From contig JAEOTE010000096.1 in NCBI GenBank assembly GCA_016839945.1, positions 1 through 40,985 of the forward strand: DNA of 40,985 nucleotides, given 5' to 3'. This stretch comes from Candidatus Heimdallarchaeota archaeon. GTDB taxonomy: Archaea > Asgardarchaeota > Heimdallarchaeia > Heimdallarchaeales > Heimdallarchaeaceae. Positions 16,464 through 35,599 of this stretch are shown here, in pieces (the first letter of the stretch is position 1; each line of letters starts with the position of its first letter). The notes beneath the pieces were generated by a model, which did not search any database, was not told the DNA's origin, and saw only the letters and a list, made by a program, of their open reading frames with translations. A program made the translations under genes and the position numbers.

Positions 16464-16510
16464 TTTTTTCACCTACTTCAACACTAGTTCCTATTTAAAA
16501 AAGAGTTGAC

Positions 16511-16534: not shown

Positions 16535-16606
16535 ACTATAAGACAAAATAAATCGCAAAAGATTTAGTTGAAACATTTAAATTTACAGAACTGAATTGTA
16601 TAAAGA

Positions 16607-17104
16607 ATGAAACGTGAAATTCGATTAGATCATTTATTCATGACATATGGAAAAGAACGTTTTCTTAATTGGTGTCGTTCATTAAACATATTTAGATTTT
16701 GTAGATCACATCCGTATCCAGATGATTTGCACCCAGATCGATTCGTTACTCTAATTTATTTTTATGATGATAATGAATTAAACGAGCTCCTAACATTGAT
16801 GAAAATTAAAACAAAAGACAATGATAATAACACTGTAAGAATAGAAGAAATCGAAACAACTTTTTCAAGCTTAGTAAAAGTGAATAATGAGAAATGTTAC
16901 ATTTATATTAACAAGATATTAAAAACAATAATTTTAGAGGTTTCAGGAATCGAGAATGATCCCTTCTCATTGGATGATACAACTTTCCAGAGGACAAAAA
17001 GGATAGATGATTTTTTGGATACACTAGATATAAATTTCATTAGTTCTCCATATGATGATGATTATTGCATTACTCCTGAATTCTATCCTCAAGTCTGGAA
17101 ATAA
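16607..17104 (+). CDS. hypothetical protein
   Basis: 165-aa ORF with ATG start and normal composition; no recognised motif. Confidence 0.7.
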   Translation: MKREIRLDHLFMTYGKERFLNWCRSLNIFRFCRSHPYPDDLHPDRFVTLIYFYDDNELNELLTLMKIKTKDNDNNTVRIEEIETTFSSLVKVNNEKCYIYINKILKTIILEVSGIENDPFSLDDTTFQRTKRIDDFLDTLDINFISSPYDDDYCITPEFYPQVWK

Positions 17105-17186
17105 ACAAACTCACTTTAAGAAATTGAATTATTTTGCGAAGCAAATGTATTTAAATTTATGCTGAAATTCTTTTCTGATTACACAG

Positions 17187-18260: not shown

Positions 18261-18284
18261 AAAGGATAATCTGGATTTGATGAA

Positions 18285-19541
18285 TTGGAAGTAGAAGTTA
18301 CAAAGAACTCAGGCTTGAAACACTGGTTTAGCTTTGAGAAGAATGAAATTTTCCTACTTCTGAGCCTTTTCTTTTTTGGTATTGCATTTGCAAATTATGA
18401 ACCTTACGCTCCTATTTGGTTACGTCAGATATTTCAGGAAGATTCTTTTCTAATAATAGGACTTGTCGCAGTTATTCCTAGTACAATGGTAGCTATAGGG
18501 ACAACAGTATGGGGATTTTTTGCTGATAAATTTGGCACAAAAAAATTCGTGTTGCTTGGGATTGTTGCTTATGCTTTAATGTTTTTCAGCTTGATTTTCA
18601 CAACGTCTTCCCAATATTTTCTTGTAATTGTACTCATAGGAAGTCTTCTTGGATCAGCTCAAACTGCAAATTACTTCGCATTAGCAACAAAATCAATCAA
18701 TAAACCTAAAGGAATGGTTTTAGCAAAGATGACAATAACTAGTAGTTTGTCTTGGATGATAGTGAGTCCAATAATTGGTTGGATTTATGATTCCTTTCTT
18801 AACTCAATGACTATCCAACTTATAATTGCTATAACTACATGTGTAATTACTGTAGCATTCGCTCTTTTGATAAAAGAAGGAACAAATGATGGAAAGCAAG
18901 TTCAAAAAGAGGAAGTAAAACAGAAAAAATCTCCACTTACTCCTTTCATTTTTATTTTCATTGGTATATTGTTGCTTGCTTTTACTTACCAAATAACAGG
19001 TGGATTCTGGGCGTATACTTCAATCTACTTTCTTGATACTCTGAATATCAAAGGATTCTTCTATTCATTCTTTCTTATAGCGAAAACAGCATTAGCCATA
19101 CCTTTGGCTTTTCTTGTAGGAAATGTTAGAAAAACAAACAAAATTACGTGGATTATAATATTATTTTCAGGTTGGTTAGTAATTGCTTATCTCATTATGA
19201 TGCTTTTCCCTACTCAATGGATTCTAATCCTAATCATTTACAGCTTACCGATGTATCCAATATACAATGTTTCTTTCTATTCATTAGTAACAAGATTTTC
19301 ATCATCTACCAGGAGAGCAACGGCTTATGGAATATTTAGCACACTTGGTACAATTGGATATATATCTGGAGTTTTAATCCTTGGTGTAGTAGCTGATAAT
19401 TTTGCAGAAGGTATTTTCAGTATGTTACCAACCTCAGTTATTTTTGCTTCAGTTTCATTATTTTTTGCAATTATGTTTTGTATTTTAATCTATTTAAAGA
19501 AAAAAGAAGTCCAGAATGTAGATGAAAATCTAGAGGAATAA
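18285..19541 (+). CDS. MFS transporter
   Basis: About 12 TM segments; motif A GFFADKFGTKK; RRATAYG. Confidence 0.9.
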   Translation: MEVEVTKNSGLKHWFSFEKNEIFLLLSLFFFGIAFANYEPYAPIWLRQIFQEDSFLIIGLVAVIPSTMVAIGTTVWGFFADKFGTKKFVLLGIVAYALMFFSLIFTTSSQYFLVIVLIGSLLGSAQTANYFALATKSINKPKGMVLAKMTITSSLSWMIVSPIIGWIYDSFLNSMTIQLIIAITTCVITVAFALLIKEGTNDGKQVQKEEVKQKKSPLTPFIFIFIGILLLAFTYQITGGFWAYTSIYFLDTLNIKGFFYSFFLIAKTALAIPLAFLVGNVRKTNKITWIIILFSGWLVIAYLIMMLFPTQWILILIIYSLPMYPIYNVSFYSLVTRFSSSTRRATAYGIFSTLGTIGYISGVLILGVVADNFAEGIFSMLPTSVIFASVSLFFAIMFCILIYLKKKEVQNVDENLEE

Positions 19542-19547
19542 AAGAAA

Positions 19548-20723
19548 TCATGGTGGTAGGAGCTTCTGTTTTTCAGCTGACTTCAACTTGTTAAGTTGTG
19601 AATGAAACAGCATAGCTAATCCTGTTTTCAAAAGACCAGTTTCCAGATAGTTTTGCAGTTCAGAATTTTCTTTGAAGATATTAATTTCTCTCTCCTGATT
19701 TCGTATAGTCTGTGAAGTAACACCTTTCATTAATTTAGTGTACAACTCTAAAGCATCTTTACCCTTTTTTTCAGCTTTTAAGATAGATTTAGCGACTAAT
19801 CTACCTGAGAGAGCAGCTGAATCCATTCCAACTCCACGAGTTTGATCAATCAATCCTGCAGCATCACCAGCCATCAAAATACGGTTTTTTCCCAACCATA
19901 CACGATTCTTGGAGTACATGTCCATTGATGTTTTATACCCCTCTCTCTTAACAATTTCACCAACTAGATTATATTCCTCTTTAATGTGTTGATAGAATTT
20001 TTCCTGTCTTTCATTTACATTAACATCATTGCACCCAGTACCAACTACCCAGTAATCTTTACCATCATCTAATGTCTTAGTATAGACCCAAGCAAACATC
20101 ACATTATTCCATTCTAGATTCCAAAACTGATAAAGTGTTTCAGGATCCATATCTGGATTTCCATCAATGTAATAATTTATTGTAGCACCTACAGATTCCT
20201 TTGAAAAATCCTCAGGACGAAGTTGAGTTCGGATTTTAGGTCTCAAACCTGTTGCATCTACTAGATATTTTGTTTTATATTGAAACTTCTTTTTTTCTTT
20301 AGGTTTAACTAAATTAACAATAACATGATCTTCCTTTTCTTCAACACTTTGACAAACACAATCATCCAAGAATTCAGCTCCAGCTTCTTGAGCAAGAATA
20401 TTTAGCCAATCATCAAATGGTTTACGCATAAAATTGAACATCTTAAAGGGAGAACTAAAGGATTTTCCATCAGGCAAAACGATACTTACTTTGTTTAATT
20501 CAATATTACAAAGACGTTCTTTAGGAATTTTTTCTCCTAAGATTTTTTCGAAATAACCAAACTGTATTCCAGAACAGGATTTATCTCTGGGAGTTTTATG
20601 TCTCTCAACTAATAGTGTTTTGAGACCACCTCTAGCTGCAAACTTTGCGGCTGTAGAACCTGCAATTCCTCCACCTGCGATGATTATGTCATACTCTGTC
20701 ATTAGAGTTTCTTTTTGTTCCAT
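19548..20723 (-). CDS. FAD-dependent oxidoreductase, geranylgeranyl reductase family
   Basis: DIIIAGGGIAGS, PRDKSCSG, RKPFDDWL, VDATG, AGDAAG..GVGM. Confidence 0.85.
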   Translation of the reverse strand: MEQKETLMTEYDIIIAGGGIAGSTAAKFAARGGLKTLLVERHKTPRDKSCSGIQFGYFEKILGEKIPKERLCNIELNKVSIVLPDGKSFSSPFKMFNFMRKPFDDWLNILAQEAGAEFLDDCVCQSVEEKEDHVIVNLVKPKEKKKFQYKTKYLVDATGLRPKIRTQLRPEDFSKESVGATINYYIDGNPDMDPETLYQFWNLEWNNVMFAWVYTKTLDDGKDYWVVGTGCNDVNVNERQEKFYQHIKEEYNLVGEIVKREGYKTSMDMYSKNRVWLGKNRILMAGDAAGLIDQTRGVGMDSAALSGRLVAKSILKAEKKGKDALELYTKLMKGVTSQTIRNQEREINIFKENSELQNYLETGLLKTGLAMLFHSQLNKLKSAEKQKLLPP

Positions 20724-20793
20724 ATATAATATAATTGTGTTATACCTATAGCACCGTGAAATATTTTTAAGAGATAAAGAAGTACTAACTAAT

Positions 20794-21444
20794 ATGAGTA
20801 AAAAGAATCCTCATTGTATCTGTATCTGGGAAGATGAGGAATCGTGTGATGAATGTAAACTAAAGGGTAGATTACACTGTCATTTAGACAAAAAATATGC
20901 AATTATCTTTGGAATACCTTTCTTTTTAGCATTCATCCCTACATTTGTAGGATTAATTCTGCTTGGTTACCCCTTGAACTTGATTTCAACATTAGTATGG
21001 ATAGGTTATATCATTTTCTTCTTTCTAGTTTGGGAACCTCCTATTTTATGTGCTCATTGTCCTTATTATGCTGAAGGAGAGACAAAATTTCTACATTGTT
21101 CTATAAATTATGGCTTCTTCAAAACTGCCAAATTCAAACCTGGACCTACTAACTTATGGGAAAAGATTCAGTTTCTGATTGGGGCAAATTTGATATTTGT
21201 TATTCCCATCGTGTTTTTAGCAATTGGACAGAAATGGATATTTCTTGGTGTATGTATTGCTGGAGTTATTTTGTGGTATATTGTAATCCAGCTTAAAGTA
21301 TGCACAGACTGTATCAATTTCTCCTGCGTACTGAATAGAGTTCCAAAGGAAATAAGGGATGAATTTCTGAAAAAGAATCCAGAGATGTTTGAAGCTTGGA
21401 AAAAAAGCGGATATAAATTTGAGAGTGAGATAAATGAAGATTAG
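20794..21444 (+). CDS. cysteine-rich 4-TM membrane protein of unknown function
   Basis: Cys clusters CIC..CDEC..HCH, CAHCPYY, HCS, CTDCINFSC alternate with TM hairpins. Confidence 0.75.
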   Translation: MSKKNPHCICIWEDEESCDECKLKGRLHCHLDKKYAIIFGIPFFLAFIPTFVGLILLGYPLNLISTLVWIGYIIFFFLVWEPPILCAHCPYYAEGETKFLHCSINYGFFKTAKFKPGPTNLWEKIQFLIGANLIFVIPIVFLAIGQKWIFLGVCIAGVILWYIVIQLKVCTDCINFSCVLNRVPKEIRDEFLKKNPEMFEAWKKSGYKFESEINED

Positions 21445-21958
21445 AAGAGCAAAATTCTCTGATATCAAAGATATTGCATATGTTCAGGTAAAATCTTGGG
21501 AGACTACTTACCCAGGATTATTACCGGATGAAACTATAAAAAGTAGAACAGTGGAAAGTAGAACACAAAAATTAACAGAGTTTTGGCCAGATCTTGAGAC
21601 ATCTACAAAACGATGTGTGATTGTTGCAGAAACAGAGGAAGGCAATATTGTGGGTTTTGTTGTTGGAGGTAGAAGTTTTGATAATAATCTTCCTTATGAG
21701 GGGGAAGTATATTCAATCTATATCATAAAAGAATATCAGAATAAAGGATTGGGAACTACTTTAATGAAAGAAACAGTTAAATTTCTGGAGAATTTAGGTT
21801 TTAAAACAATGATCGTTTGGGTATTGGAAGGAAACAAACAAGCAAGTTTATTTTATGAAAAGTTGGGGGGAATTGCTAAAGAAAGAAAGATGAAAGACAT
21901 CGAGGGGAAGGAATATCTAGTTAATGGATATGTTTGGGAAGATATCAGTAATTTCTAA
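21434..21958 (+). CDS. GNAT family N-acetyltransferase
   Basis: IYIIKEYQNKGLGTTL, WVLEGNKQASLFYEKLG. Overlaps the upstream stop by 11 bp. Confidence 0.9.
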   Translation: MKIRRAKFSDIKDIAYVQVKSWETTYPGLLPDETIKSRTVESRTQKLTEFWPDLETSTKRCVIVAETEEGNIVGFVVGGRSFDNNLPYEGEVYSIYIIKEYQNKGLGTTLMKETVKFLENLGFKTMIVWVLEGNKQASLFYEKLGGIAKERKMKDIEGKEYLVNGYVWEDISNF

Positions 21959-22725: not shown

Positions 22726-23508
22726 TTATTTTGCTTCAACCATTTTATCCCTATCTACAACAAAAAACTTCAGTACAGAGAAAAGTGATGCCAATCCTAC
22801 CGTTCCAGCTATAACAATGAATGGCCATAACTGCCCTACATCAAGTAAAATGAAATACACAAGTAGCATGCTTGTACCAATTCCAATGAACATTGACCAT
22901 CCCCAATAAAACAAGGAATCTATCCATGAAATAGTTGGTTCTTTTAAGACAAAGTACGCAATTATCACCAATCCGCTCCAGATGCTTGTTCCTATTATTG
23001 GATATATTTGAAAATCTTCCCAACCGCCAGTTTCTATAAAAAGTCCAAATCCTAAAGCAAACATTGTTGTAAGAGTAGTAATGAATAAGATTACAGTCCA
23101 TACTAGAAGAAGATACAAAGGTTGTCGCTCTTTTTTCATCAAGGAGAAATGAACTCCTCCTGCCCATAAAATTAAATGAAAAGTACCCATTAAGGGCATA
23201 GCTTGAAAATCTTCCCAAGCTCCAAAATTAGCATATGCTAGAGCTAGCATACTGAAAGTAGTTGCTAAAAATAAGAAGAAAAACCAAATAATAACAATTA
23301 TACTAGATTTAATTTCTTTCTTTCTTGCTATAAACAAGAAAGCTGTCATTAGTATTATTAAGTAGACCATACCCAAAGTTGGACTACCAAACCATTCAAT
23401 ACCAGTTAGATCATCTTTCAATACGAATACGAATATGATTGCAATTATGCTTCCTATTATCCAGGTCCAAATAGTTATAGCGAGGAGAAATTTTTGTTTA
23501 ACCATCAT
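22726..23508 (-). CDS. polytopic membrane protein built from internal TM-hairpin repeats
   Basis: About 8 TM segments; WEDFQ twice; W-x4-F-x6-M three times. Confidence 0.75.
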   Translation of the reverse strand: MMVKQKFLLAITIWTWIIGSIIAIIFVFVLKDDLTGIEWFGSPTLGMVYLIILMTAFLFIARKKEIKSSIIVIIWFFFLFLATTFSMLALAYANFGAWEDFQAMPLMGTFHLILWAGGVHFSLMKKERQPLYLLLVWTVILFITTLTTMFALGFGLFIETGGWEDFQIYPIIGTSIWSGLVIIAYFVLKEPTISWIDSLFYWGWSMFIGIGTSMLLVYFILLDVGQLWPFIVIAGTVGLASLFSVLKFFVVDRDKMVEAK

Positions 23509-24246: not shown

Positions 24247-24777
24247 GTGACAATCATTAGAAAACAGAGAATAATTAAAGACTATGAATCCTTAAGGAAG
24301 CTTCATAAAGAAGGAATTATTGGACAAGTGAAATCCTTTCCAAAGAAGAAGAAATCTATGGAACATCTGGCTATTGGTTTTAAGGCTCCTAAAGGAACAC
24401 CCTATGAAGGAGGAAAATATAAACTAGAAATCCTTTTTGGTCCAAATTATCCTTACAAACCTCCATTTGTAAGACTTCACACTTTTATTTGGCATCCAAA
24501 CTTTTGGAGCAATCCTAAAGAGTACCCAGGCAAAAGAAACATATGTTTAGCATTAGTTGATAATGAGATGGTAGGTAAACATGACGGTTGGTCTCCCGCT
24601 AAAAACATTACTACAGTTATTCATTCAATATTAGCAATGTTTAATGTTGAAGGAGCATATGTTAACCCTAAGGATGTTTTTAACAGAGAAGCTGCTTTAG
24701 AGTTCTTAAGAGATAAGAAAAAATTCCTAAGAAAAGCAAGAGCAGTAAGTAAAAAATACGCTACCTCTTACTGGTAA
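24247..24777 (+). CDS. ubiquitin-conjugating enzyme E2
   Basis: GTPYEGG, YPYKPP, WHPNF, active-site ICL, WSPA. GTG start. Confidence 0.95.
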   Translation: MTIIRKQRIIKDYESLRKLHKEGIIGQVKSFPKKKKSMEHLAIGFKAPKGTPYEGGKYKLEILFGPNYPYKPPFVRLHTFIWHPNFWSNPKEYPGKRNICLALVDNEMVGKHDGWSPAKNITTVIHSILAMFNVEGAYVNPKDVFNREAALEFLRDKKKFLRKARAVSKKYATSYW

Positions 24778-24797: not shown

Positions 24798-25532
24798 ATG
24801 GGTATTGGTGTATTGACAATGGACAAAGAAGAAGATATTCCTGAACAGTACAAAGAACTTATGAGAAAAATAGAAGCTATCGAGAAAGCATTAGGACTCT
24901 CAGATATTGATAAAATAGTTGAGGATATCGAAAAAGAAAGAGAAATAGTTATCACTGAAGAAGATATTCAAATAACTCCTGAAACTGAAATAATCATTAA
25001 ACCTAAAGCATATCTCAAACTAGCAAAACATGCTTTATCATATGCAAATTCATTTATCCCAAAAAAAGATTGGATAGAAATTATAGGTTTATTAACAGGA
25101 CGAATAAAAAACGAAGAAACTCCTTTAGAACAAATTATTGTTGAGGATTATTGGCCTGTTGATCAAGGTGATGCTGTTAGTGTAGAAATTGTCGATCAAA
25201 AAATCTTTACAGAGATTTTCCATAAAAAAGATTCAAAACATTTCATAATTGGTTGGGCTCATTCCCATCCTAGTTATACTCCCTTTCTAAGTGATGATGA
25301 TTTTAGAACACATCTAAGATATCAAACATTTTGGAATAAATCCATAGCTGTTGTGATTGATCCTATACAAATATCCTTGGATGATTATGGATTAGGTGTT
25401 TTCAGAATAAAAGATGATAAGCGATCATATCATGAATTAACAAAAGAAGTTGAAGGAATGAGTACTGTAGCAAGTTATGAATCTATAGAGATGTTTATGA
25501 AAAATCAGTTTAAAGAAAAAAACAATCAATAA
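24798..25532 (+). CDS. JAMM/MPN+ metalloprotease (Rpn11/CSN5-like deconjugase)
   Basis: EIIGLL, GWAHSHPSYTPFLSDDD (HxH-x7-S-x2-D), AVVIDP. Acidic helical N-extension. Confidence 0.93.
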   Translation: MGIGVLTMDKEEDIPEQYKELMRKIEAIEKALGLSDIDKIVEDIEKEREIVITEEDIQITPETEIIIKPKAYLKLAKHALSYANSFIPKKDWIEIIGLLTGRIKNEETPLEQIIVEDYWPVDQGDAVSVEIVDQKIFTEIFHKKDSKHFIIGWAHSHPSYTPFLSDDDFRTHLRYQTFWNKSIAVVIDPIQISLDDYGLGVFRIKDDKRSYHELTKEVEGMSTVASYESIEMFMKNQFKEKNNQ

Positions 25533-25553: not shown

Positions 25554-26657
25554 TTGGACTTGAATAACATCAAAGTATATGCATCTATAGCTATTGTAGG
25601 TACAATGGTTGGGGTATTATATCTAGCAATTCAAAAAGATTTACCTGTTGCATTAATTTTCTTTTATGTTACACTTTATGTTGTTGTCACACTACGTTAT
25701 GTTCTAGAAAGAAGACATTATAAAAAACATAAAGCAGCTTTAGCTAGTTCTCAATTCCTGTTATTACCTTTTAGCGTTATGCTAATGGGGAACTATATCT
25801 CTCCAGCTGCTGCTAATCCTAGAATTTTCTTAATAAATATTGATCTTGTTGGGGGGGATTCTCTACGAATTTTCTTTAATATCATTTCGCTATCTATGAT
25901 TATCCCATTAATAGTTCTCTCATTACATTTCAATAATTTCTATTCAGGAAGATGGCCTGCAATGGCTATTAATAGAAAAATAAAAAGAAAGAAAATAATT
26001 CCAATACTCTTTTTCACTTCCTTTGTTTTCATTTTACTAATTGGTTTCTTCATAAATTTGACAATTGATTTTGTTAGTTTAATTTTTGTACTTATCTACA
26101 TCGTTCTCTCAATAAACCATTTTATTGTTGCTCCAGCTAGAAGTGCAAGAGTAAGGGCAATTCAAAGAGCTCCAACAAGTACAACTAGAAGAACAGCATC
26201 TACAACTAGGCAACAAGTCCGCACAGTTCGTTCGAGTTCAACAAGAGCAAGGCGCACTACTTCAACTACAGCTTCTAGAACTACTAGAACCGCTCAACGT
26301 TCTACAGCACGTGTTGCTATTGATCCAGGGATAGATGTAAGGACTACAAGAAAAACCACTGCAAAAGCTGTATCTACCAAGATAACAGATAAAAATATAT
26401 TCCCTATTGGTAAGGTTTCAAGTTCTGAATTGAAATGTATAATCTGTTATATGGATTTTAATAAGAGAGATACAAGAAGAGTTGTTCTTTGTCCTCATTG
26501 CAGATATCCAGCTCATGAGGATGAATTCTTGAATTGGTTCAAGACTTCCAAACTTTGTGCAAGATGTAACAAACCTATCTCAACCAAATACATTAAGAAA
26601 CCTATATACAGACTAACTACAAAAATATATATTGAAAGAGTAATTGAAAAAGTATAA
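25554..26657 (+). CDS. multi-pass membrane protein with C-terminal RING-variant domain (putative E3 ligase)
   Basis: About 6 TM segments in aa 1-190, an R/T/S-rich linker, then CxxC-x14-CxxC-x4-H-x2-E-x3-W-x6-CxxC. Confidence 0.8.
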   Translation: MDLNNIKVYASIAIVGTMVGVLYLAIQKDLPVALIFFYVTLYVVVTLRYVLERRHYKKHKAALASSQFLLLPFSVMLMGNYISPAAANPRIFLINIDLVGGDSLRIFFNIISLSMIIPLIVLSLHFNNFYSGRWPAMAINRKIKRKKIIPILFFTSFVFILLIGFFINLTIDFVSLIFVLIYIVLSINHFIVAPARSARVRAIQRAPTSTTRRTASTTRQQVRTVRSSSTRARRTTSTTASRTTRTAQRSTARVAIDPGIDVRTTRKTTAKAVSTKITDKNIFPIGKVSSSELKCIICYMDFNKRDTRRVVLCPHCRYPAHEDEFLNWFKTSKLCARCNKPISTKYIKKPIYRLTTKIYIERVIEKV

Positions 26658-26739
26658 TAAATACAATGTCCATATGTATCAAAAGACATTTCACTAGAAA
26701 TCAAATATATATTCAGAAAACGACTACAAAGGTTGGATT

Positions 26740-27327
26740 ATGGGAACAATATCACACTTAACAGCTTCTTTCTTCATTTCATTATCTCTTGTTGGAGTAT
26801 CAATTTACTATTTTATTGAAGGAGATAACTTAATGGGGAAGGTGTTTGTGTTCATTGGCATTTTTGTTTTCATCTCATTTTTCTTTATTTTCAGAAGTAT
26901 ATACTACTTGAGACATAAAGCGACATTTAACGAATTCATCTACGTGTTTATTCTCCCTCTAATTCCAGTTTTGATACTTTTTGCCCAAGAAATGTTCAAT
27001 TTCAATGATATATTCTTAATTTCAACAGGAAATATTAAAACTAATGGAATAGATTATGATTTCTATATTACAATTATAGATTTTCTATTACTTCCTTATT
27101 ATTTAGCGAGTAACTATTTATTATTCAGATCGTTTATTCGTTATCCATTTATCAGATTCAAAAGTACAAGTGAAAAAGGTATGCCGCCAAAATTAGCAGG
27201 ATTAATTTTAATGTTAGCAATTCCAGCTCTATATATTGCTAGCTCCCTCACATATTTCCATAATTTCTTCTTGTTAATCTTTGGTATAGTCTATTTCTAT
27301 CTTGGCACAGTTGCTCTGTTTGTCTAA
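26740..27327 (+). CDS. ~6-TM membrane protein, apparent paralog of the E3 membrane domain
   Basis: Motifs colinear with the 25554 ORF: YxxHKA, LP, IFLI, II...P, R[WY]P, LIF..[IV]Y. Confidence 0.75.
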   Translation: MGTISHLTASFFISLSLVGVSIYYFIEGDNLMGKVFVFIGIFVFISFFFIFRSIYYLRHKATFNEFIYVFILPLIPVLILFAQEMFNFNDIFLISTGNIKTNGIDYDFYITIIDFLLLPYYLASNYLLFRSFIRYPFIRFKSTSEKGMPPKLAGLILMLAIPALYIASSLTYFHNFFLLIFGIVYFYLGTVALFV

Positions 27328-27343: not shown

Positions 27344-27991
27344 CTACTTTCGTGGTTTTTTCTGTTTAGGAATCTTTTGTTTTGGAATCTTCTGTTGAGG
27401 AATTTTTTGTTTAGGTATCTTTCTTTCTACTTCTTTTATTTGGGTAGTAACAGGTTCTTCTCTTTCTTTCTTCTCTTTCTCCCTTTCTTCTTTTGGAGCA
27501 GGTTTAGATTCTTTACTTTCAATTTCAGAGAACTTATCACTATCATTAACAGGAGGTGGAACTGATTTCTTTTCTTTTTTCTCTTTTTCTGGACTTATAA
27601 TATTTTCAACAGGTTTCTTTTCTTTTAGTTTTGTTTTTTGAGGTGGTCGAGTTTCCTTAGGTTTCTTCTGCTTTGTGTGTGTGTCTTTAGGAATGTAATT
27701 TATAGGCTTGGAGCTTGTGATTTTATCTTGTTTAGGTATCTTTGATTTAGGGATTTTTTGCTTAGGAATGGATTTACTTTTCTTTTCAGTTCTAAAACTT
27801 GTTAAATCGGATTTTGGCGGTTTTGAAGAATCTATTTTTTTCTTCTGTTTTTTTGGTGGAACTATATAATCCTCCCTGATTTTCTGTTTAGGGGGTCCAT
27901 CTGATGGAATTTTTGTTTTTGGTATTTTATCAGATGGTATTTTCTGTTTAGGAATCTTCGATTTTACTTTACTTTTTTTCTTCTTAGCCAT
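27344..27991 (-). CDS. lysine/proline-rich low-complexity protein with KIPxx pentapeptide repeats
   Basis: About 30% Lys by manual count. Ten KIP motifs in three blocks. ATG start MAKKKK. Repeat codons vary synonymously. Confidence 0.75.
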   Translation of the reverse strand: MAKKKKSKVKSKIPKQKIPSDKIPKTKIPSDGPPKQKIREDYIVPPKKQKKKIDSSKPPKSDLTSFRTEKKSKSIPKQKIPKSKIPKQDKITSSKPINYIPKDTHTKQKKPKETRPPQKTKLKEKKPVENIISPEKEKKEKKSVPPPVNDSDKFSEIESKESKPAPKEEREKEKKEREEPVTTQIKEVERKIPKQKIPQQKIPKQKIPKQKKPRK

Positions 27992-28232
27992 CTGTAATTC
28001 ACATCAATATGTTAAATTCCTATTATAATTTGTTTTTAATCAAATATATTATTTCTGATAGTTAAAGAATTACTCTTTTTAATTTAATCGCTTCTTTATT
28101 GAGTTATGCGTAAAAAAACCAAATTTAAAACATTAAAGTGGAATGTTTATCAAATAGGAAACTAAAGTAATTTTTAAAAGGCAATTTATATAAGTAAAAC
28201 TCGATATATTAATATCTAAAAGGTTGATAAAA

Positions 28233-28583
28233 ATGAGCGAAGAATTTGAAGAATTATCGTTTGATGAAGAAGAGGAAGAAGTAGTAGAAGAAACTGAAAT
28301 AGTTTCAAAGACTCCCTCAACAAAAACTCCCGCAGGAAAGAAAATAAGTGTATATTTCCAAAGTACAATTGGTCCAACTCCAAAACAAGAAAAACTTGTT
28401 GTTGCAACTGAAACACCTATCAGTGATCTCAAATATACTGTAAGTCAAATATTTGGACTTCCTCCAGAGGAATTTCATCTATCTCACGCAGGAAGAACAT
28501 GCGATCCTGATGACATTCTAGAAGATTATGGGGTTGAAGATGGAGATACAATGCTCCTAATACCAGTTTCAACTGCAGGATAA
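28233..28583 (+). CDS. ubiquitin-like protein with acidic N-terminal extension, ending ...STAG
   Basis: PISDLK..GLPPEEFHLSHAG..LEDYGVEDGDTMLLIPVSTAG aligns without gaps to ubiquitin residues 22-76. ATG at 28233. Confidence 0.9.
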   Translation: MSEEFEELSFDEEEEEVVEETEIVSKTPSTKTPAGKKISVYFQSTIGPTPKQEKLVVATETPISDLKYTVSQIFGLPPEEFHLSHAGRTCDPDDILEDYGVEDGDTMLLIPVSTAG

Positions 28584-28738: not shown

Positions 28739-29998
28739 ATGGAAAACAAATCTAGTGATAAATCAAATTTTTTTAGTGAAGTATTATCAGCTGACGAAAG
28801 GATAAGATTTGATAGACAATTACGATTACCAGGTTGGAATCAGAAAGCACTAAAGGATTCAACTGTACTAATTGTTGGTGTAGGTGGTTTAGGTACTGAG
28901 ATTGCTAAAAATCTAGCAATGGCTGGAGTTGGAGTGCTTCATCTTATTGATTTGGATATAATTGAGCATTCCAACCTCAATCGACAGATATTGTTCTATG
29001 ATGCTGAGGAAGGGGAGCCAAAATCCAAAGTAGCTGCTCGTACATTAAAGAAAATCAATCCTCATAGCAGATACTTTTGGCATTACTCTAATTTGGAGGA
29101 TGTGAATCCTGAAATCTATGCAAAAGCTGATTTATACATCTCTGGACTTGATTCAGTTACTGCAAGAAACGAATTAATGAGACGTGCTGTTCAATTTAAG
29201 AAGCCTATGATTGATGGAGGAACAGCTACGTATTATGGTCATGTTTATACTTATTTACCTAATGTAAATTCCTGTCTTCAATGTGATCCTCAGAGAGAAC
29301 GAGAGAGAGAAACTCTAGCAGCTTGCACTCTTGTAGGTATTCCAAGAAAAAGATCGCATTGTCTTCTAAAAGGTCAATTGTTCTTTGAATCAAAACATAA
29401 TAGACCTCCAGACACAACAGAAATGGATGAAGTTAAAATCGCGTTAGATTATGCAAATGATTTAATTAAAGAACATTTTCCAGAAACTGGATTATTTACA
29501 ATAGATGAAGCTGTAAAGATGATTGATCAACATGATCCAACTGTTATTTCAATAAATGCAGTTATTGCATCATTACAAACCCAAGAAGCTCTGAAATTGC
29601 TTCATCATCTCAAAGGAATAGAACTAGGTGTAGTAAACCCAGAATACCTTATCTACAATGGATTGGTTGGAAAATTCTTCTATTTAGAAAAACCACCAAA
29701 CAAGAAATGTTTACTATGTGGTGATAACGCACCAATAATAGAAGAAATAGAATTACCTAGAAGTTCTACTCTAGATATGTTGTATCCAATACTAAAACAA
29801 AGGGGATATCATTTTGATCCTGAGTTTTTACCAAGTTTCTGGCTTGTGGATAAAAAAGAGATGAGTGAAGCCAAAAGAAACAACACGCTTGTTGAAGCTG
29901 GTATTAGGGATTTTGAAACAATTTATGTAACAGGTCTTACAAAGAACAATGAGGAAAAAGATGTTTATGTAAGAATCCTCTTGAAGAATACAAAATAA
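28739..29998 (+). CDS. ubiquitin-activating enzyme E1 (ThiF family, UBA3/UBA2-like)
   Basis: RFDRQ, VGVGGLG, SNLNRQ, CLQC and CLLC zinc motifs, catalytic AACTLVGIPRKRSHC, C-terminal ubiquitin-fold-like TLVEAGIRDFETIYV. Confidence 0.93.
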   Translation: MENKSSDKSNFFSEVLSADERIRFDRQLRLPGWNQKALKDSTVLIVGVGGLGTEIAKNLAMAGVGVLHLIDLDIIEHSNLNRQILFYDAEEGEPKSKVAARTLKKINPHSRYFWHYSNLEDVNPEIYAKADLYISGLDSVTARNELMRRAVQFKKPMIDGGTATYYGHVYTYLPNVNSCLQCDPQRERERETLAACTLVGIPRKRSHCLLKGQLFFESKHNRPPDTTEMDEVKIALDYANDLIKEHFPETGLFTIDEAVKMIDQHDPTVISINAVIASLQTQEALKLLHHLKGIELGVVNPEYLIYNGLVGKFFYLEKPPNKKCLLCGDNAPIIEEIELPRSSTLDMLYPILKQRGYHFDPEFLPSFWLVDKKEMSEAKRNNTLVEAGIRDFETIYVTGLTKNNEEKDVYVRILLKNTK

Positions 29999-30079
29999 CT
30001 TGTGATTCTAATTAGTATAGAACATCAGATATCTCTATGTCAATAGACATATAAATTGTGTTTCTTAAGGAATCCCACT

Positions 30080-30472
30080 ATGAGTGAAAGAGACATTAAT
30101 TATTTTAAATTACTTGCTAAATACTATGGAATTAAAGAGAAGTTTTTTGATATCAAAGAAGACATTGATGAACTTGAAGGAAAGAAAGCTTATTACCAAA
30201 AACAACAAGCAAATGTAAATAGAGAATTACAAGGGATGCTTCTAAAAATAAACAAGCTAAGAAGTGATGGAAAAGCAGATAAGGCACTCAAGCAGGAAAT
30301 GAATCTTAAGAAAAAAGAAGTTAACGTAGCTAATTATAAGAAAAGTATTCAAGATATACAGAATAAAATTGAGAAAATAAAATTAGAATTTCAAAAAACC
30401 AGGACTGAGCTTGAAAAAACTGAATCACAACTAAAAATGGAATTTCCAGATAAATTCAATCAACATTTGTAA
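30080..30472 (+). CDS. coiled-coil helical-hairpin protein (possible PspA/ESCRT-III-like)
   Basis: Two long heptad-rich helices joined by LRSDGKADKA. ATG at 30080. Confidence 0.6.
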   Translation: MSERDINYFKLLAKYYGIKEKFFDIKEDIDELEGKKAYYQKQQANVNRELQGMLLKINKLRSDGKADKALKQEMNLKKKEVNVANYKKSIQDIQNKIEKIKLEFQKTRTELEKTESQLKMEFPDKFNQHL

Positions 30473-30559
30473 AACTATTCCAAAGTAGAAATATTACCTT
30501 CTATAAAGTTGAAAGAAACACAAAATAATTCTTATAAATATCTCAATAATGATTAAGAT

Positions 30560-31129
30560 ATGATCCCCTTCTTCCCTAAAGATAAAGAAGTTCCAGAAGA
30601 ATTGATTTTTGATAATATAAAAATTAGACAACTTAGAGCAACTGATAATGAGCTTGACTATCAAGCAGTAATTGAGAGTGGTTTTAGACCTGAAGGTTTT
30701 CCAAAAGAAGAGAATCTTAAACAGATTTCAAGACATGAACAAGATCATAATGATAGTAAGGAATTTGCTTTTACTATAATGAATACTGATGAGACTATTT
30801 GTTATGGTTGTATTTTTATTAAACCTATTAATCCCTTTCTGAAATTTGCTTTCTTTAATGATAGAGTTGTTGAAAGTTTGAACATTGAAGAAAATGATCC
30901 TGGGATCTCTTTCTGGATAACTCCTAAAGGATGGAAACTCAATCTGTTTGAGAAAATTCTTAAGGAATTAAAAAACTGGTTTGAGATTGAATGGCCTTAT
31001 GATCGATTGTTTTTCCTTGGAATGAGACCAAATCAAGAAGAGATAAATGAGATTGAAAAAATAAGTCTGAAAAGAAATTTCTTATTACAAATAGAAAATG
31101 AGAATTATATCCTTTGGCAGATCTATTAG
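30560..31129 (+). CDS. GNAT-like N-acetyltransferase family protein
   Basis: IRQLRATDNELDYQAV, FAFTIMN..E..CYGCIFIKP, SFW, WF..EWPY. Confidence 0.65.
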   Translation: MIPFFPKDKEVPEELIFDNIKIRQLRATDNELDYQAVIESGFRPEGFPKEENLKQISRHEQDHNDSKEFAFTIMNTDETICYGCIFIKPINPFLKFAFFNDRVVESLNIEENDPGISFWITPKGWKLNLFEKILKELKNWFEIEWPYDRLFFLGMRPNQEEINEIEKISLKRNFLLQIENENYILWQIY

Positions 31130-31148
31130 GTTTCTTAAAATGATTTCT

Positions 31149-31532
31149 TCACATTCCTGTTAACAAAACATAGTAAATATTGTAGATTATTCTTTGCAGT
31201 TTCCCATCCTTCTGAGTTTTTTCATAGACTTCTTTAAGGTTGACTTTTTTACCTGATTTATCTTTTAGGTAAAATTCTTCTCCTTCTCTTGAAAACTGTA
31301 GATTAAATTCTTCATTAAAGAATTGTTGAAGATAGCTCTCTTTTCCTTCCTCTAATACATCTTCAAATTCCATAAAAGAAATACCAAAGCCTACTTCTGG
31401 AGGGTGAACTCCTTGTTGAATAAGATTAAGCACAATATCCTTTTTCTTACAAATTGGACACCTAACGATATCAAATAAGGTACTATATTCTTCATCGAAT
31501 TCTATATTGCATTTCTTACAGAAGAACTTCAT
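31149..31532 (-). CDS. zinc-ribbon-containing hypothetical protein
   Basis: N-terminal CKKC...CPIC. Probable ATG at 31532. Confidence 0.7.
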   Translation of the reverse strand: MKFFCKKCNIEFDEEYSTLFDIVRCPICKKKDIVLNLIQQGVHPPEVGFGISFMEFEDVLEEGKESYLQQFFNEEFNLQFSREGEEFYLKDKSGKKVNLKEVYEKTQKDGKLQRIIYNIYYVLLTGM

Positions 31533-31659
31533 CCAATAATAATACAAATACTAATTTAAAAAATTATACAAATTATATAAGATTCATCTGTTTTTAGTAA
31601 ATCTTCAACAAAACTGCATCTAGAAAACTTAATATCATTGTTTTCTTTAAATAATTAAG

Positions 31660-32313
31660 GTGATTGAGATTTTTTCAAAGAAGAAAAAAGGAAAAAGCCT
31701 GAGAGAATTGTTTATAGAACTTAGTAGTTTAACAAAAGAAGCATTCAGTATGATGAAAAATGCTGTTTTGGCATATGTGGAAGGTAATTTCAAACTAGCT
31801 GAAGAAGGTGCAGAAAAAACTATTGCAATTGAAAAAAAGCAAGATCGAATTAAAGAAGAGATATTTGCAAGAATATTTTCTCGAGAAACTATGGTTTTTT
31901 CCCGTTCCGACCGAATATTTGTAGTTGAAAATATTGATAAAATTACTGATCAGATAGAATTAGTTGCTCAAAAACTTCTCTTGTATGAAACCGAAATTAT
32001 AGAACCATTACAAGAGGGTATCAAGGAGCTTGCAATTTTAAATGAACAAATAGGTGAAAAAGTTCATGAAATGGTATTAAATGTTCTTGATGATTTTGAG
32101 GAAGCGAAAAAAAATATTACGCAAATTACTGATCTTAGACGAACTGTTAGAGAAAAAAGATGGGAATTACAAAAAATGAATTATCATTTTCATGATGATT
32201 TTATGTCTTTTAGATATGTTGAAACATTAATCAAATATCTAATGGAAGCAGCGGATAGAGCAGAGATTTTTGCAGATCGAGTTTTTGTTTTAATCAATAA
32301 ATATGCTCTCTAA
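31660..32313 (+). CDS. DUF47 / PhoU-like phosphate transport regulator
   Basis: EKKQDRIK, RSDR, IDKITD, ADRAE..AD; directly upstream of PiT. Confidence 0.9.
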   Translation: MIEIFSKKKKGKSLRELFIELSSLTKEAFSMMKNAVLAYVEGNFKLAEEGAEKTIAIEKKQDRIKEEIFARIFSRETMVFSRSDRIFVVENIDKITDQIELVAQKLLLYETEIIEPLQEGIKELAILNEQIGEKVHEMVLNVLDDFEEAKKNITQITDLRRTVREKRWELQKMNYHFHDDFMSFRYVETLIKYLMEAADRAEIFADRVFVLINKYAL

Positions 32314-32340
32314 CTTTAAACTGATGGAGTAAAATAACCA

Positions 32341-33357
32341 ATGGATCCCTTAGTCATTGTTCTCTTAGTTTTGATGGTTGTTCTAGCTTTTGGCATAGGC
32401 GCAAATGATGAGACTATGGCAACATTGGTGGGTAGTAGAGTAGTAAAAACAAAATATGCAATAGGACTAGGAGCTATATTATCATTTGTAGGAGTAATGT
32501 TTCTTTCAGAAAGTGTAGGGAAAACGATAGGAGAGAATCTTCTTGGAGAATCTGTGGAATATAATGTCTTCATGCTTTTTGCAGTTATAATTAGTACAAC
32601 TATTTGGTTAGTTGTTGCATCAAGAACAGGAGCCCCAATATCAACAACACACTCAGTAGTAGGAGCTGTATTTGGAGTAGCAATAGTGTGGAGTTTCCAA
32701 GCAGAAGGTTCATTTATCAGTTCAATGAGTTGGGGTAAACTTGGTGAAGTGGCTCTAGGATGGGTATTGTCACCTGTTCTAGGTATGTTAGGTGCTGCAC
32801 TGTTTAAAATTATAATAGAAAAAATATTGTCAAAGTTCCAAAAAGGATTGGAACGAACAGAGAAAATAGAAAGAATTTTTGGTATTCTTTTAATTGGTAT
32901 TATTGGGTGGACACAAATTAGTAGAGGTGGAAATGATTCAGCTAATGCTTTAGGTATTATGTATGGATTAATCGAATCAGGACAATTTTCATCTGATTAT
33001 TCGATTTATCTTATATTAGCAACTGGAGCTGTTCTATCAGCTGGGTTAGTAATAATTGGAAAAAATGTGATAAAGAATGTTGGGAACAATCTTATAGCAA
33101 TTAAACCTTCAGATGCTGTTAGCATTGAGCTTTCAACAAGTATAGTACTCTTTCTTGCAACTATCTTTGGTTTTCCCATATCAGGAAGTCACGTTTTAAT
33201 TTTTTCTGTAGTAGGAGCAGGATTGGTGAAAGGTGAACGTCCTGAAAAAAAACCCTTCGTAAGGATAATTTTAAGTTGGATTATAACATTCCCAATTGCA
33301 GCTGTTTTATCTGGCATAATTTATGGAATCTTCTTAGGAGTTATCCCTTCTCTCTAA
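32341..33357 (+). CDS. pitA: inorganic phosphate transporter (PiT family)
   Basis: GIGANDE, PISTTHSVVGA, GGNDSANA, GFPISGSH. Confidence 0.92.
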   Translation: MDPLVIVLLVLMVVLAFGIGANDETMATLVGSRVVKTKYAIGLGAILSFVGVMFLSESVGKTIGENLLGESVEYNVFMLFAVIISTTIWLVVASRTGAPISTTHSVVGAVFGVAIVWSFQAEGSFISSMSWGKLGEVALGWVLSPVLGMLGAALFKIIIEKILSKFQKGLERTEKIERIFGILLIGIIGWTQISRGGNDSANALGIMYGLIESGQFSSDYSIYLILATGAVLSAGLVIIGKNVIKNVGNNLIAIKPSDAVSIELSTSIVLFLATIFGFPISGSHVLIFSVVGAGLVKGERPEKKPFVRIILSWIITFPIAAVLSGIIYGIFLGVIPSL

Positions 33358-33474
33358 ATATTTCTTAATTGTTGAGAATATTAATAAGTGTTCAATTTTT
33401 TATTCAACTATATCAGATTAAACTGAATATCTCACTAAAAAATTTTTAGAAAATTTAAAAGAAGGTTAAAATCA

Positions 33475-33798
33475 ATGTCTAGAGGTTATCCAGTAAAAAT
33501 AACAATTGTTAGAAAATTCAGCTCAGAGGAAGTATTTGGTTATGAGCATTACTACCCAGATGGGAGAAAATCAACTATATGCCCCCATTTCAAAGAAGGA
33601 GAGGAAATAATCATTGATCATGTTTACACAGATTTACCAACTGATTGGCCTTGTTCTTGGGCTTGGATGGACCTATGGAAAGATCTATCAGTTCTTTCTC
33701 TAGGTGGAGATTTTACTCATACTGAACCCAGAATAACTTACACTACTTGTAGGGATGGAACAAAACCAGTTGTCTTTAAATTAGAAAGAATAGAATAA
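33475..33798 (+). CDS. TIGR04076 family protein
   Basis: CPHFKEGE, CSWAWMDL, CRDGTKPVVFKLERIE. Confidence 0.85.
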   Translation: MSRGYPVKITIVRKFSSEEVFGYEHYYPDGRKSTICPHFKEGEEIIIDHVYTDLPTDWPCSWAWMDLWKDLSVLSLGGDFTHTEPRITYTTCRDGTKPVVFKLERIE

Positions 33799-33811
33799 AG
33801 GAGAATAAAAA

Positions 33812-34705
33812 ATGAAAATTGAAAATTATAAATGCTTTAGTTTAACTAAAAAAGAGAAATTTAAACCGGAAGAATTCATAAAAGGAAGACTAGAGAGAAC
33901 AGATTATGTTCTTAAAAGCTTCAAAGCAATTAAACCTGAAGAATTAAACGTTTATGTTTCAAACTTAAAAGAAAAATTTAGTGAAGTTGTTGGGAATTAT
34001 GAATTCAATATTAATGTTTTTAATTGGGATTCGATTAGAAAAGATTTAGTTGTTTTGCCTAACTTTCCAGATTTTGAGAAATTAGTTTTTCTTTTTGTTT
34101 GTAAAACTATTAATTTACCTGAAAATTATGTAAATGAACAAGGAGAAATCGAAACAATTTATTTTGATCTAAGAAAAACTTCAGAAAGAATCTCTTACTA
34201 CCTAGTAAGGACTTTGGTAGATATTTACGGGAAAGAGGAAGGTACTGAACTCTATAAACAAATTGCACCCAATATCATAAAAGAATATATCTCAAAAGCT
34301 GAAAGAGAAAAACCTAAAGACGTATCAGAAGAACCCATAGATCCCAAAACCGTTAAGATTCATGATTTCAAGAAAAATTCAACAGAAGCATGGTGTAAAG
34401 TAGGACTTGCTGATTTTACATCTTGTATAATTGATGATTATAAAGTGGTTTATCGTTTTGACAGTTGCTTAACTCCAGAAGCTTTGAAAGAGTTTAATGA
34501 TCCAGATATAGCATATTTAGCTTCATGCTACTTAGCAGATATTCCAGAATTTAATGAAGGAAGAACAATCCACCTTAGAAGAACTCAAACTCTACATCAT
34601 GCTAAATTCTGTGATGAGTTCTATTGGAATAATGATGTCCATCCAGATGCAGAACAACCAGATATAGAATTTATAGAAAATATGGGGAAGGATTTGGAAG
34701 AATAA
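33812..34705 (+). CDS. ATC-hydrolase-like (L-2-amino-thiazoline-4-carboxylic acid hydrolase family) protein, paralog 1
   Basis: RFDSC, CYLAD, LRRTQTL...CDEFYW. Confidence 0.7.
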   Translation: MKIENYKCFSLTKKEKFKPEEFIKGRLERTDYVLKSFKAIKPEELNVYVSNLKEKFSEVVGNYEFNINVFNWDSIRKDLVVLPNFPDFEKLVFLFVCKTINLPENYVNEQGEIETIYFDLRKTSERISYYLVRTLVDIYGKEEGTELYKQIAPNIIKEYISKAEREKPKDVSEEPIDPKTVKIHDFKKNSTEAWCKVGLADFTSCIIDDYKVVYRFDSCLTPEALKEFNDPDIAYLASCYLADIPEFNEGRTIHLRRTQTLHHAKFCDEFYWNNDVHPDAEQPDIEFIENMGKDLEE

Positions 34706-34723
34706 GAAGTAGGGTAAAGTAAA

Positions 34724-35596: not shown

Positions 35597-35599
35597 GAA

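Follow-up and report, generated by a model that had tools for sequence, protein, structure and literature searches.

A gene for a membrane-embedded RING protein that is followed by a smaller gene for a RING-less membrane protein raises two questions: whether the second protein is a relative of the membrane domain of the first, and whether the two proteins act together as one ligase. Such a pair, here called A and B, lies in the window, the stretch of 40,985 nucleotides of Candidatus Heimdallarchaeota DNA (contig JAEOTE010000096.1) that was analysed. The original prediction, which placed both ORFs correctly, held that B is a RING-less paralog of the TM domain of A and that the two form a heteromeric membrane ligase. 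As described below, this interpretation is only partly supported, because the homology is nearly certain and the heteromer is just plausible. The part that stood comprises the paralogy and the position of the pair within a complete Ubl, E1, E2, and JAMM cluster.

The gene cluster and its two membrane proteins

The features of the locus are listed in Table 1. The E2 gene is syntenic in all related loci, the JAB/MPN gene is syntenic as well, and A is the last gene of the Ubl-E1-E2-JAMM operon in many Asgard lineages. In the window, A and B are separated by an AT-rich spacer of 82 nt that contains a TATA-like run, and they may therefore be transcribed separately. The Lys/Pro-rich ORF adjoins B in 27 of 40 loci (families f1, f2, and f5), and no such ORF was found downstream of A in the loci that carry A only. 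A Pfam scan of the ORFs around the cluster, at 13309-21958 and 30056-39080, detected no ESCRT gene.

Table 1. Positions of the genes and protein domains of the cluster within the window
Feature	Position	Strand	Description
E2 (UQ_con)	24247..24777	+	Pfam PF00179, E 5e-25
JAB/MPN (Rpn11-like) isopeptidase	24798..25532	+	Directly upstream of A; Pfam PF01398, E 3.3e-12
A	25554-26657	+	ORF, 367 aa: six-helix membrane domain, basic linker, RING/U-box-like finger
A membrane domain, residues 1-200	25554..26153	+	Regarded as founding copy of the A-TM/B superfamily
A linker, residues ~201-286	26154..26411	+	Arg/Ser/Thr-rich, predicted disordered
A RING/U-box-like zinc finger, residues ~287-367	26412..26657	+	Stop codon included
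B	26740..27327	+	ORF, 195 aa: membrane domain only, stops directly after helix 6
Lys/Pro-rich protein (30% K)	27344..27991	-	Predicted disordered; convergent with B
Ubiquitin-like modifier (Ubl)	28224..28583	+	Pfam ubiquitin PF00240, E 1.7e-6; mature form ending in -AG
E1 (ThiF family)	28739..29998	+	Pfam PF00899, E 5.5e-52

In the AlphaFold model of A, the membrane domain (pLDDT ~70-87) consists of helices at residues 6-27, 30-59, 67-82, 110-130, 148-168, and 173-204, with a beta-hairpin (strands 90-97 and 103-109) between helices 3 and 4. The linker that follows corresponds to low-complexity columns in alignment A2, and residues 204-276 are modelled with a pLDDT of 25-47. In the finger, C295, C298, C313, C316, H321, C335, and C338 are invariant in the same alignment; only these seven zinc ligands are clear and the eighth is uncertain. 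The finger matches Pfam zf-RING_2 (E 0.0021, 18.7 bits, cut-off 27.3) and Prok-RING_1 (E 0.011, 16.1 bits, cut-off 29.1), in both cases below the gathering score. When the model of A was compared with the PDB by Foldseek, RING or U-box domains made up nearly all of the top 50 rows (best E 0.089 and none at or below 0.001, with target TM-scores up to 0.74), and in a VIA search residues 287-367 matched both Ring1b and a U-box with Z 7.1. As modelled, the C-terminal finger of A is a RING/U-box fold with conserved zinc ligands.

The AlphaFold model of B (pLDDT 86, pTM 0.80) has helices at residues 2-26, 30-58, 66-85, 112-133, 150-173, and 176-194, and strands at 93-100 and 105-111. A Cys/His-rich domain is absent from B, as is any Cys-x2-Cys pair. 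The RING pattern is missing from all 12 full-length B-type representatives, and none of 45 B homologs has a Pfam domain.

Relationship between B and the membrane domain of A

Almost certainly, B and the membrane domain of A are genuine, if distant, paralogs, B being the one that has no RING. A direct BLASTP comparison finds no significant similarity (E 2.7), and a Smith-Waterman alignment reaches z=4 over whole-sequence shuffles, a null that loses the transmembrane pattern. The HHalign profile-profile check proposed with the original prediction gave a significant result: probability 88.7% and E 2.6e-6 for alignments A2 and A1, and probability 97.9% and E 5.5e-13, with 170 colinear columns, for the more diverse alignments A4 and A5. 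The controls, which preserve composition and hydropathy pattern, failed to reproduce this signal. Reversed B gave E 0.65-0.75, and the real score of 81.4 compares with 21.9 +/- 5.7 (maximum 43.8) for shuffles in blocks of 6 columns and 15.3 +/- 2.9 for blocks of 12 columns. All six motif pairs that had been aligned by eye (HYKKHKA/YYLRHKA, FLLLPF/VFILPL, RIFLIN/DIFLIS, the pair ending in MIIP/LLLP, GRWP/IRYP, and LIFVLIY/LIFGIVY) were recovered as matched columns when the two profiles were aligned.

The two families also find each other in HMM searches. In its own genome, the B HMM matches the membrane domain of A (E 0.035), which is the sole other match in 3 Mb, and it matches the membrane domain of A in a second genome (G232) with E 3.5e-5; reciprocally, the A-TM HMM matches the B proteins of two genomes (G127, E 4e-7; G133, E 2.7e-6). 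F68 and P118/119 are common to A and B and nearly invariant in the merged alignment A6. The AlphaFold models of A and B have an identical order of six helices with the beta-hairpin at the matching position, and length, predicted secondary-structure order, and topology all match. Based on the profile signal, the failed controls, and the reciprocal HMM matches, the similarity is reasoned to be one of homology and not of composition. The reading that A and B are unrelated hydrophobic proteins of similar length, alike in composition only, has the BLASTP value on its side and is very nearly excluded by the profile alignment and its controls, by the HMM matches in both directions, and by the co-located hairpin and shared F68 and P118/119. 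An internal 3+3 repeat within the domain is unsupported, since hhalign of the N-terminal half against the C-terminal half reaches E 0.11 in B and 0.018 in A.

The common ancestry extends to the predicted orientation in the membrane. Basic residues (Lys and Arg) abound in loops 2 and 4 (mean K+R 2.5-3.6 and 4.8-6.1, respectively), and the hairpin, like loops 1 and 5, is acidic. This charge pattern is common to B, to A of the Heimdall class, and to A of other Asgard lineages, and it therefore points to an N-in/C-in topology in all three groups, with the RING in the cytoplasm. A and B are thus both predicted to be N-in/C-in, with their common motifs on cytoplasmic loops.

The six-helix membrane domain belongs to no Pfam family and has no clear match among solved folds. 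At E <= 0.1, Pfam gave no match for B or for the membrane domain of A. Foldseek against the PDB gave no row at E <= 0.001 for the model of B, and for the model of A it gave the RING/U-box rows described above, again with no match at E <= 0.001. In the wide VIA search, the best row for B had Z 7.9 and every row was a generic helical match. For A, the search returned chain 9uav_B, from an HRD1-SEL1L-XTP3B entry (Z 7.7, rmsd 3.7, 116 residues aligned), a row that is tied with unrelated ones and lies inside the noise range for helical bundles. A search of the ESM Atlas by shape with the model of B gave TM-scores that were all <0.5, the best rows being MscK-type membrane domains, and the feature search with B returned unnamed clusters only. 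A PDB sequence profile search with the superfamily alignment produced a single chance row (E 1.3). The papers searched contain no description of either the membrane domain of A or B.

B retains a pattern of conservation of its own. Fourteen residues are invariant class-wide, namely F25, Y56, A61, T62, N64, P76, P119, R130, R134, Y135, F137, I138, R139, and G147, and the loops carry the motifs K-A-T-F/L-N-E after helix 2 and R-Y-x-F-I-R ... S-x-x-G after helix 4. These polar loop motifs are strongly conserved in B, and A does not have them in that form. Asn64 is kept in 13 of 13 B proteins and in 8 of 8 A proteins from other Asgard lineages, whereas all 12 A proteins of the Heimdall class have Ala or Val at this position. 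Compared with the copies in the window, and over one set of genomes, B is 26-62% and A-TM 20-56% identical. Judged from these alignments, B is under its own constraint and diverges on a par with A-TM.

Distribution of the pair and the possibility of assembly

Of 301 genomes sampled from the phylum, 51 have B. They all belong to four families of the window's own class, and the same four families carry A. Counted from coordinates, 38 of the 50 B-bearing genomes besides the window's have A followed directly by B on the same strand. Two of the remainder have the genes convergent within ~1 kb and six have B on another contig; in four, A was not found, and their assemblies are incomplete or place B at the end of a contig. 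The spacing between A and B is 4-10 nt in some lineages (loci L044 and L003), and some genomes of family f2 have A and B convergent or on separate contigs. Within the class, A without B was seen in one genome only (G241, 70% complete), and the class genomes that have neither A nor B, including three that are 92-95% complete, also have no operon-type E2. The pair is present in the much-studied Heimdallarchaeota AB_125 (locus L065), so that constructs could be made from public sequence. No B-like gene was found near A in Loki-, Thor-, Odin-, Hermod-, or Borr-type genomes; it follows that the ligase can work, or at least persist, without B.

In the tree, branching within the B clade mirrors that of the clade of Heimdall-class A. 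The tree contains three well-supported clades that meet in an unresolved trichotomy, and it does not date the duplication; B is equidistant from A of the Heimdall class (E 1.2e-8) and A of other Asgard lineages (E 5.9e-8). A census of the superfamily matched 110 representatives among 1.84 billion representative proteins. Of these, 72 have the membrane domain with a RING and 12 a full-length membrane domain only, the rest being nearly all fragments. As far as sequence searching of these 1.84 billion representatives detects it, the domain occurs in just two architectures. No fused or tandem form is among the 110; one candidate (P0148) proved to have merely an insertion after helix 1.

The co-occurrence of A and B, their adjacency, their congruent trees, and the restriction of B to families that carry A constitute comparative support and suggest a heteromer; the constraint on B, the limitation to two architectures, and the complementary retention of Asn64 point the same way. 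It is plausible, with roughly even chances, that A and B assemble as a heteromeric membrane ligase of the ubiquitin type. In such a mechanism, A would serve a self-contained Ubl-E1-E2-JAMM system as its membrane-embedded RING E3, B would be a RING-less duplicate of its six-helix domain that was retained as a separate gene, and the two would form a hetero-oligomer side by side in the cytoplasmic membrane. A would bring the only RING, on an unstructured basic tether of ~85 residues, and the tethered RING would recruit the E2~Ubl of the operon; B would add another copy of the membrane domain, one without catalytic function. The best-conserved motifs, both shared and family-specific, lie on the two basic loops, predicted to be cytoplasmic, that follow helices 2 and 4. 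With cytoplasmic termini and conserved cytoplasmic loops, A and B would present a composite platform at the cytoplasmic face, beside the RING, and this platform could bind a membrane or membrane-proximal substrate for modification. The physical association, its stoichiometry, the substrate, and a role as channel or receptor are what we infer here. A fuller version is more tentative: A would supply the RING and B the second half of a composite membrane substrate site or groove, Heimdall-group archaea would tag membrane proteins with Ubl, and the Lys/Pro-rich neighbour could be a dedicated acceptor or adaptor.

Adjacency and co-inheritance can, however, also result from membership of one pathway without the products ever touching. 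B could accordingly be a free-standing membrane protein that keeps an ancestral activity, for example the binding of lipids, small molecules, or membrane proteins via its conserved cytoplasmic loops, or it could be a substrate or regulator of the ligase. The strongly conserved polar loop motifs that B has for itself, and the Asn64 that it retains and Heimdall-class A has lost, would fit such a role. So would some f2 genomes, in which B is not linked to A or faces it in convergent orientation, the many Asgard lineages, most of them, that have A and no B, and the spacer before B in the window, which may hold its own promoter. Yet B was found only in those families of the class in which A and the operon are present as well, the few B-bearing genomes in which A was not detected are incompletely assembled or carry B at the edge of a contig, and tandem-encoded paralogs of one membrane domain often co-assemble. 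A role for B in the pathway other than as a subunit is thus possible but on the whole unlikely.

Another alternative, and a distinctly improbable one, is that B is a RING-less decoy that pairs with A or competes for its substrates and so lowers or gates the ligase in a dominant-negative manner. It rests on the same comparative evidence as the heteromeric ligase; RING E3s often need RING dimerisation, and an A-B pair would have one RING only. Against it stands the class-wide conservation of B at the rate of A-TM, including the 14 invariant residues, which exceeds what a simple decoy would require.

Comparison with known ubiquitin systems and membrane ligases

The origin of eukaryotes includes the question of when, and by what steps, ubiquitin tagging came to be coupled to membranes. 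Eukaryotes use membrane-embedded RING ligase complexes, by which membrane proteins are marked for extraction, degradation, or ESCRT sorting. The Heimdall class is the group usually placed nearest eukaryotes, and the E3 usually reported for Asgard ubiquitin operons is a small RING protein. In the conserved operon considered here, the candidate ligase is a polytopic membrane protein, and the Heimdall class appears to have gained a RING-less paralogous partner gene. If A and B assemble, they would offer a simple system that could be rebuilt from five or six genes, with one membrane ligase and one partner. The pair could then serve to study the working and the evolution of a membrane E3 that has a paralogous subunit without catalytic function. 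On the more tentative reading, in which Heimdall-group archaea tag membrane proteins, it would parallel, in a prokaryote and on a membrane fold without a clear counterpart among solved structures, the membrane E3 complexes through which eukaryotes supply ERAD and ESCRT sorting.

Among archaea, Candidatus Caldiarchaeum subterraneum has an operon with Ub, an E1-like protein, an E2-like protein, a small RING finger protein, and Rpn11 (PMC5654768, PMC6043591), and Asgard Ub-ESCRT clusters have a soluble RING E3 (bioRxiv 10.1101/2023.07.25.550441). The cluster in the window resembles these in its compact set of Ubl, ThiF-type E1, UBC-type E2, JAMM/Rpn11, and a single RING-type candidate E3. It differs in that the RING of A is not a small soluble protein but is fused to a six-helix membrane domain by a long basic linker, and in that the Heimdall class adds the RING-less paralog B.

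Among eukaryotes, Asi1/Asi3, Pex2/Pex10/Pex12, and Hrd1 with Der1 are polytopic membrane RING E3s with paralogs or non-catalytic partners. A and B may work similarly, in that a multi-pass membrane domain would keep the RING at the cytoplasmic face, next to a related or partner membrane subunit. In the Asi and Pex systems every paralog keeps its RING, whereas B has none. The Pfam and PDB searches described above found neither a sequence relation nor a clear fold match, and no clear structural resemblance to the membrane domains of Hrd1, Derlin, Asi, Pex, or MARCH6 emerged. The likeness to all three systems is one of analogy and not of membership. Derlins, which are rhomboid pseudoproteases of ERAD, exemplify catalytically dead paralogs that accompany active enzymes in membranes. 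Unlike in Derlins, the membrane domain of A and B is not itself known to be catalytic, what B lacks is an appended soluble RING, and the fold of A and B is, as far as compared, unrelated to theirs. In concept, both Derlins and B may be viewed as a duplicated membrane domain that is without the catalytic module and is retained in the pathway.

The membrane-embedded RING protein A and its RING-less paralog B

The window is AT-rich (GC about 30%) and carries a compact cluster of ubiquitin-like (Ubl) system genes, all on the + strand except for a convergent Lys/Pro-rich ORF. A, a membrane-embedded RING protein, is a member of this complete Ubl conjugation and deconjugation operon. Its first 200 or so residues form a hydrophobic domain (A-TM); a linker rich in Arg, Ser, and Thr connects this to a Cys/His finger at the C-terminus. 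Against Pfam the finger matches RING families weakly (zf-RING_2, E 0.0021, below cut-off), and the structural matches of its AlphaFold model are almost all RING and U-box. The following protein, B, ends directly after its last helix, and its gene is preceded by an 82-nt spacer that contains a TATA-like run.

Features of the window and of related loci
Feature	Locus	Position	Strand	Remark
Membrane protein, 260 aa	window	22726-23508	-	no Pfam match
E2 (UQ_con)	window	24247-24777	+	Pfam
JAB/MPN isopeptidase	window	24798-25532	+	Pfam
ORF A, 367 aa	window	25554-26657	+	membrane domain, linker, finger
Residue-64 codon of A	window	25743-25745		
ORF B, 195 aa	window	26740-27327	+	no Pfam match
Residue-64 codon of B	window	26929-26931		
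Lys/Pro-rich ORF	window	27344-27991	-	convergent
Ubiquitin-like gene	window	28224-28583	+	Pfam
ThiF-type E1	window	28739-29998	+	Pfam
Three tandem paralogs	window	33812-36469	+	297, 290, 289 aa
Lys/Pro-rich ORF	L001	8617-9348	-	
Lys/Pro-rich ORF	L003	9924-10766	+	
Lys/Pro-rich ORF	L044	5614-6363	-	
Lys/Pro-rich ORF	L048	5842-6492	-	
Tandem ubiquitin-like gene pair	L003	4352-5167		f5/f2-type operon
Tandem ubiquitin-like gene pair	L044	10985-12154		f5/f2-type operon
Tandem ubiquitin-like gene pair	L045	10429-11582		f5/f2-type operon
Tandem ubiquitin-like gene pair	L048	10504-11273		f5/f2-type operon
P0179, B-type protein, 239 aa	L051	58-777		912-bp metagenome contig

As single sequences A and B are not significantly similar (BLASTP E 2.7), and their Smith-Waterman z-score of 4 is relative to whole-sequence shuffles, an unsafe null for membrane proteins. 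Searches found 57 homologs of A and 45 of B; where named, these are Heimdallarchaeota hypothetical proteins. Profile-profile comparison of close-relative alignments gives a probability of 88.7% (E 2.6e-6, 157 colinear columns). With more diverse alignments, which sample A-TM phylum-wide and B in four families, hhalign reaches 97.9% and a significant E of 5.5e-13 over 170 colinear columns, the best alignment spanning A residues 14-188 and B residues 14-191. Controls preserving composition and the hydrophobic pattern lose the signal: E is 0.65-0.75 with B reversed, and shuffling columns in blocks of 6 or 12 gives scores of 21.9 +/- 5.7 (maximum 43.8) and 15.3 +/- 2.9, versus 81.4 for the real alignment. 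HMM matches run both ways. In the 3-Mb genome that the window comes from, the B profile has one other match, the A domain (E 0.035), and it also matches that domain in another sampled genome, G232 (E 3.5e-5); the A-TM profile matches B proteins in G127 (E 4e-7) and G133 (E 2.7e-6). These results confirm the original prediction that B is a paralog of A's membrane domain, and all six motif pairs aligned by eye at that stage fall in matched columns. Mere compositional likeness is rejected on the same grounds.

The AlphaFold models have an identical order of elements, down to an unusual beta-hairpin that separates helix 3 from helix 4. B (pLDDT 86, pTM 0.80) is modeled as H2-26, H30-58, H66-85, strands 93-100 and 105-111, H112-133, H150-173, and H176-194; A (membrane part pLDDT about 70-87) as H6-27, H30-59, H67-82, strands 90-97 and 103-109, H110-130, H148-168, and H173-204. 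This matching order, together with the alignment, points to a common fold. No internal repeat is detectable in either family. In B, Heimdall-class A, and other-Asgard A alike, Lys and Arg are abundant in the loops that follow helices 2 and 4; the hairpin and the loops that follow helices 1 and 5 are acidic. The positive-inside rule gives each of the three an N-in/C-in topology, with the linker and RING of A on the cytoplasmic side alongside E1, E2, and Ubl. Features shared superfamily-wide, in A-TM and B together, are Tyr56 followed by a basic residue and Ala, Asn64, Phe68, Pro118/119 where helix 4 begins, an aromatic residue then Pro after helix 4, and Asp or Asn before helix 6. The invariant motifs specific to B lie mostly on the two cytoplasmic loops.

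Distribution, linkage, and descent of the pair

Among 301 sampled genomes of the phylum searched with both profiles, B is present in 51, all in families f1, f2, f5, and f7 of the window's class, and A-TM in 111, from these families plus f14 (58/68), f15, f20, and f30. Named records with both are MAGs labeled Heimdallarchaeota, including AB_125; those with A only are labeled Promethearchaeota (Loki), Thor-, Odin-, Hermod-, Hodarchaeota, and Borrarchaeum, some labels being doubtful (a record called "Thorarchaeota" shares 88% identity with the window). A is everywhere the final gene of a Ubl-E1-E2-JAB-A unit, and in the A-only lineages neither a B-like gene nor a Lys/Pro-rich ORF follows it. B is co-inherited with A and nearly always adjacent: by coordinates in the 50 B-bearing genomes besides the window's, it lies directly downstream of A on the same strand in 38, is convergent with A within about 1 kb in 2, and is on a different contig in 6, while in 4 A was not found and B is at a contig end or the assembly is incomplete. 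Within the class only G241 (70% complete) has A without B. Class genomes that have neither, including three that are 92-95% complete, also lack the operon-type E2 (best matches E 1e-13 to 3e-6, versus 1e-64 or better for operon orthologs); thus the whole unit is present or absent together. The superfamily profile, run against 1.84 billion representative proteins, found 110, comprising 72 with membrane domain and RING, 12 with the full-length membrane domain alone, and nearly all the rest fragments; none has another architecture or a tandem fusion. The superfamily is small and unnamed, and its named records are all Asgard archaea.

In a maximum-likelihood tree, B (100/99), other-Asgard A (100/99), and Heimdall-class A (65/89) form three clades joined in an unresolved trichotomy, and by hhalign B is about equidistant from Heimdall-class A (E 1.2e-8) and other-Asgard A (E 5.9e-8). 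The duplication may therefore be old with later loss, or may have occurred in the class ancestor with fast divergence thereafter. The B clade branches in parallel with Heimdall-class A (f5 with f7, f2 with f1), consistent with vertical inheritance of the two together. With 14 residues invariant and a divergence rate close to that of A-TM, B is not a decaying copy. In the merged alignment Asn64 occurs in every B (13/13) and every other-Asgard A (8/8), and each of the 12 Heimdall-class A sequences has Ala or Val at this position; where A and B coexist, only B keeps this ancestral residue. P0179 has a short tail of about 45 residues, Ser/Arg-rich with an acidic end, that recalls the A linker, and this protein may represent an intermediate form linking A and B.

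Of 40 B-bearing loci of f1, f2, and f5, 27 encode a Lys/Pro-rich protein (210-310 aa, 19-30% Lys, 10-16% Pro, predicted disordered) beside B, in varying orientation. Its arrival seems to coincide with that of B, and it could serve the Ubl system as acceptor or adaptor. Related f5 and f2 operons have two tandem ubiquitin-like genes before E1, where the window has one, and Loki-type operons (L036, L038) have additional Ub-domain ORFs upstream. The 260-aa protein upstream of the cluster reads by eye as a threefold repeat with units of about 85 residues, in each of which a G-x-W-E-D-F-Q...P...G motif stands ahead of a hydrophobic helix; its gene has no counterpart before E2 in L001, the sole related locus with its upstream region inspected. 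Each of the three tandem paralogs weakly matches ATC_hydrolase (PF14196; E 3e-3 to 8e-6, below cut-off), and in L001 a comparable pair (290 and 289 aa) lies downstream of the operon.

Candidate assembly in the membrane

The original prediction also read A and B as a candidate heteromeric membrane ligase with one RING, an interpretation that is partly supported. We give an even chance to an assembly in which A and B would associate within the membrane, A supplying the single RING on a flexible basic tether and each presenting a related loop platform at the cytoplasmic face. This is suggested by the occurrence of B only in lineages with A and the operon, and by the common co-assembly of tandem paralogs of one membrane domain. 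Counting against an obligatory heteromer are the many Asgard lineages (most of them) with A alone, and the spacer before B. It is rather unlikely that B serves the pathway with no contact to A, whether by preserving the domain's ancestral function (it retains Asn64) or as substrate or regulator. That B is a RING-less decoy is more doubtful still.

Comparison with known systems

The window's cluster is of the Caldiarchaeum/Asgard operon type, in which the RING protein is small and soluble (PMC5654768, PMC6043591; 10.1101/2023.07.25.550441), whereas A is membrane-embedded and has a RING-less paralog. No mention of the superfamily membrane domain or of B was found in the searchable literature on such operons. 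The eukaryotic complexes Asi1/3, Pex2/10/12, and Hrd1-Der1, in which polytopic RING E3s have membrane partners that are paralogous or non-catalytic, appear to be the closest functional analogies to the pair. No sequence relation to them was found, and membership of A and B in the Asi, Pex, or Hrd1-Der1 families is not supported. Fold searches with the A and B models gave no clear match to these complexes and a single hit to an HRD1 complex. This structural match of A residues 1-133 (window 25554-25952) to residues 140-266 of 9uav_B, a chain of a human HRD1-SEL1L-XTP3B cryo-EM entry (Z 7.7, rmsd 3.7, 116 aligned), ties with unrelated helical proteins within the helical-bundle noise range, and 9uav_B is absent from the top 50 for the better-quality B model; it is a lead only. 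Taken together, A and B represent a membrane RING E3 with a candidate paralogous non-catalytic partner, built on a membrane domain of no known family.
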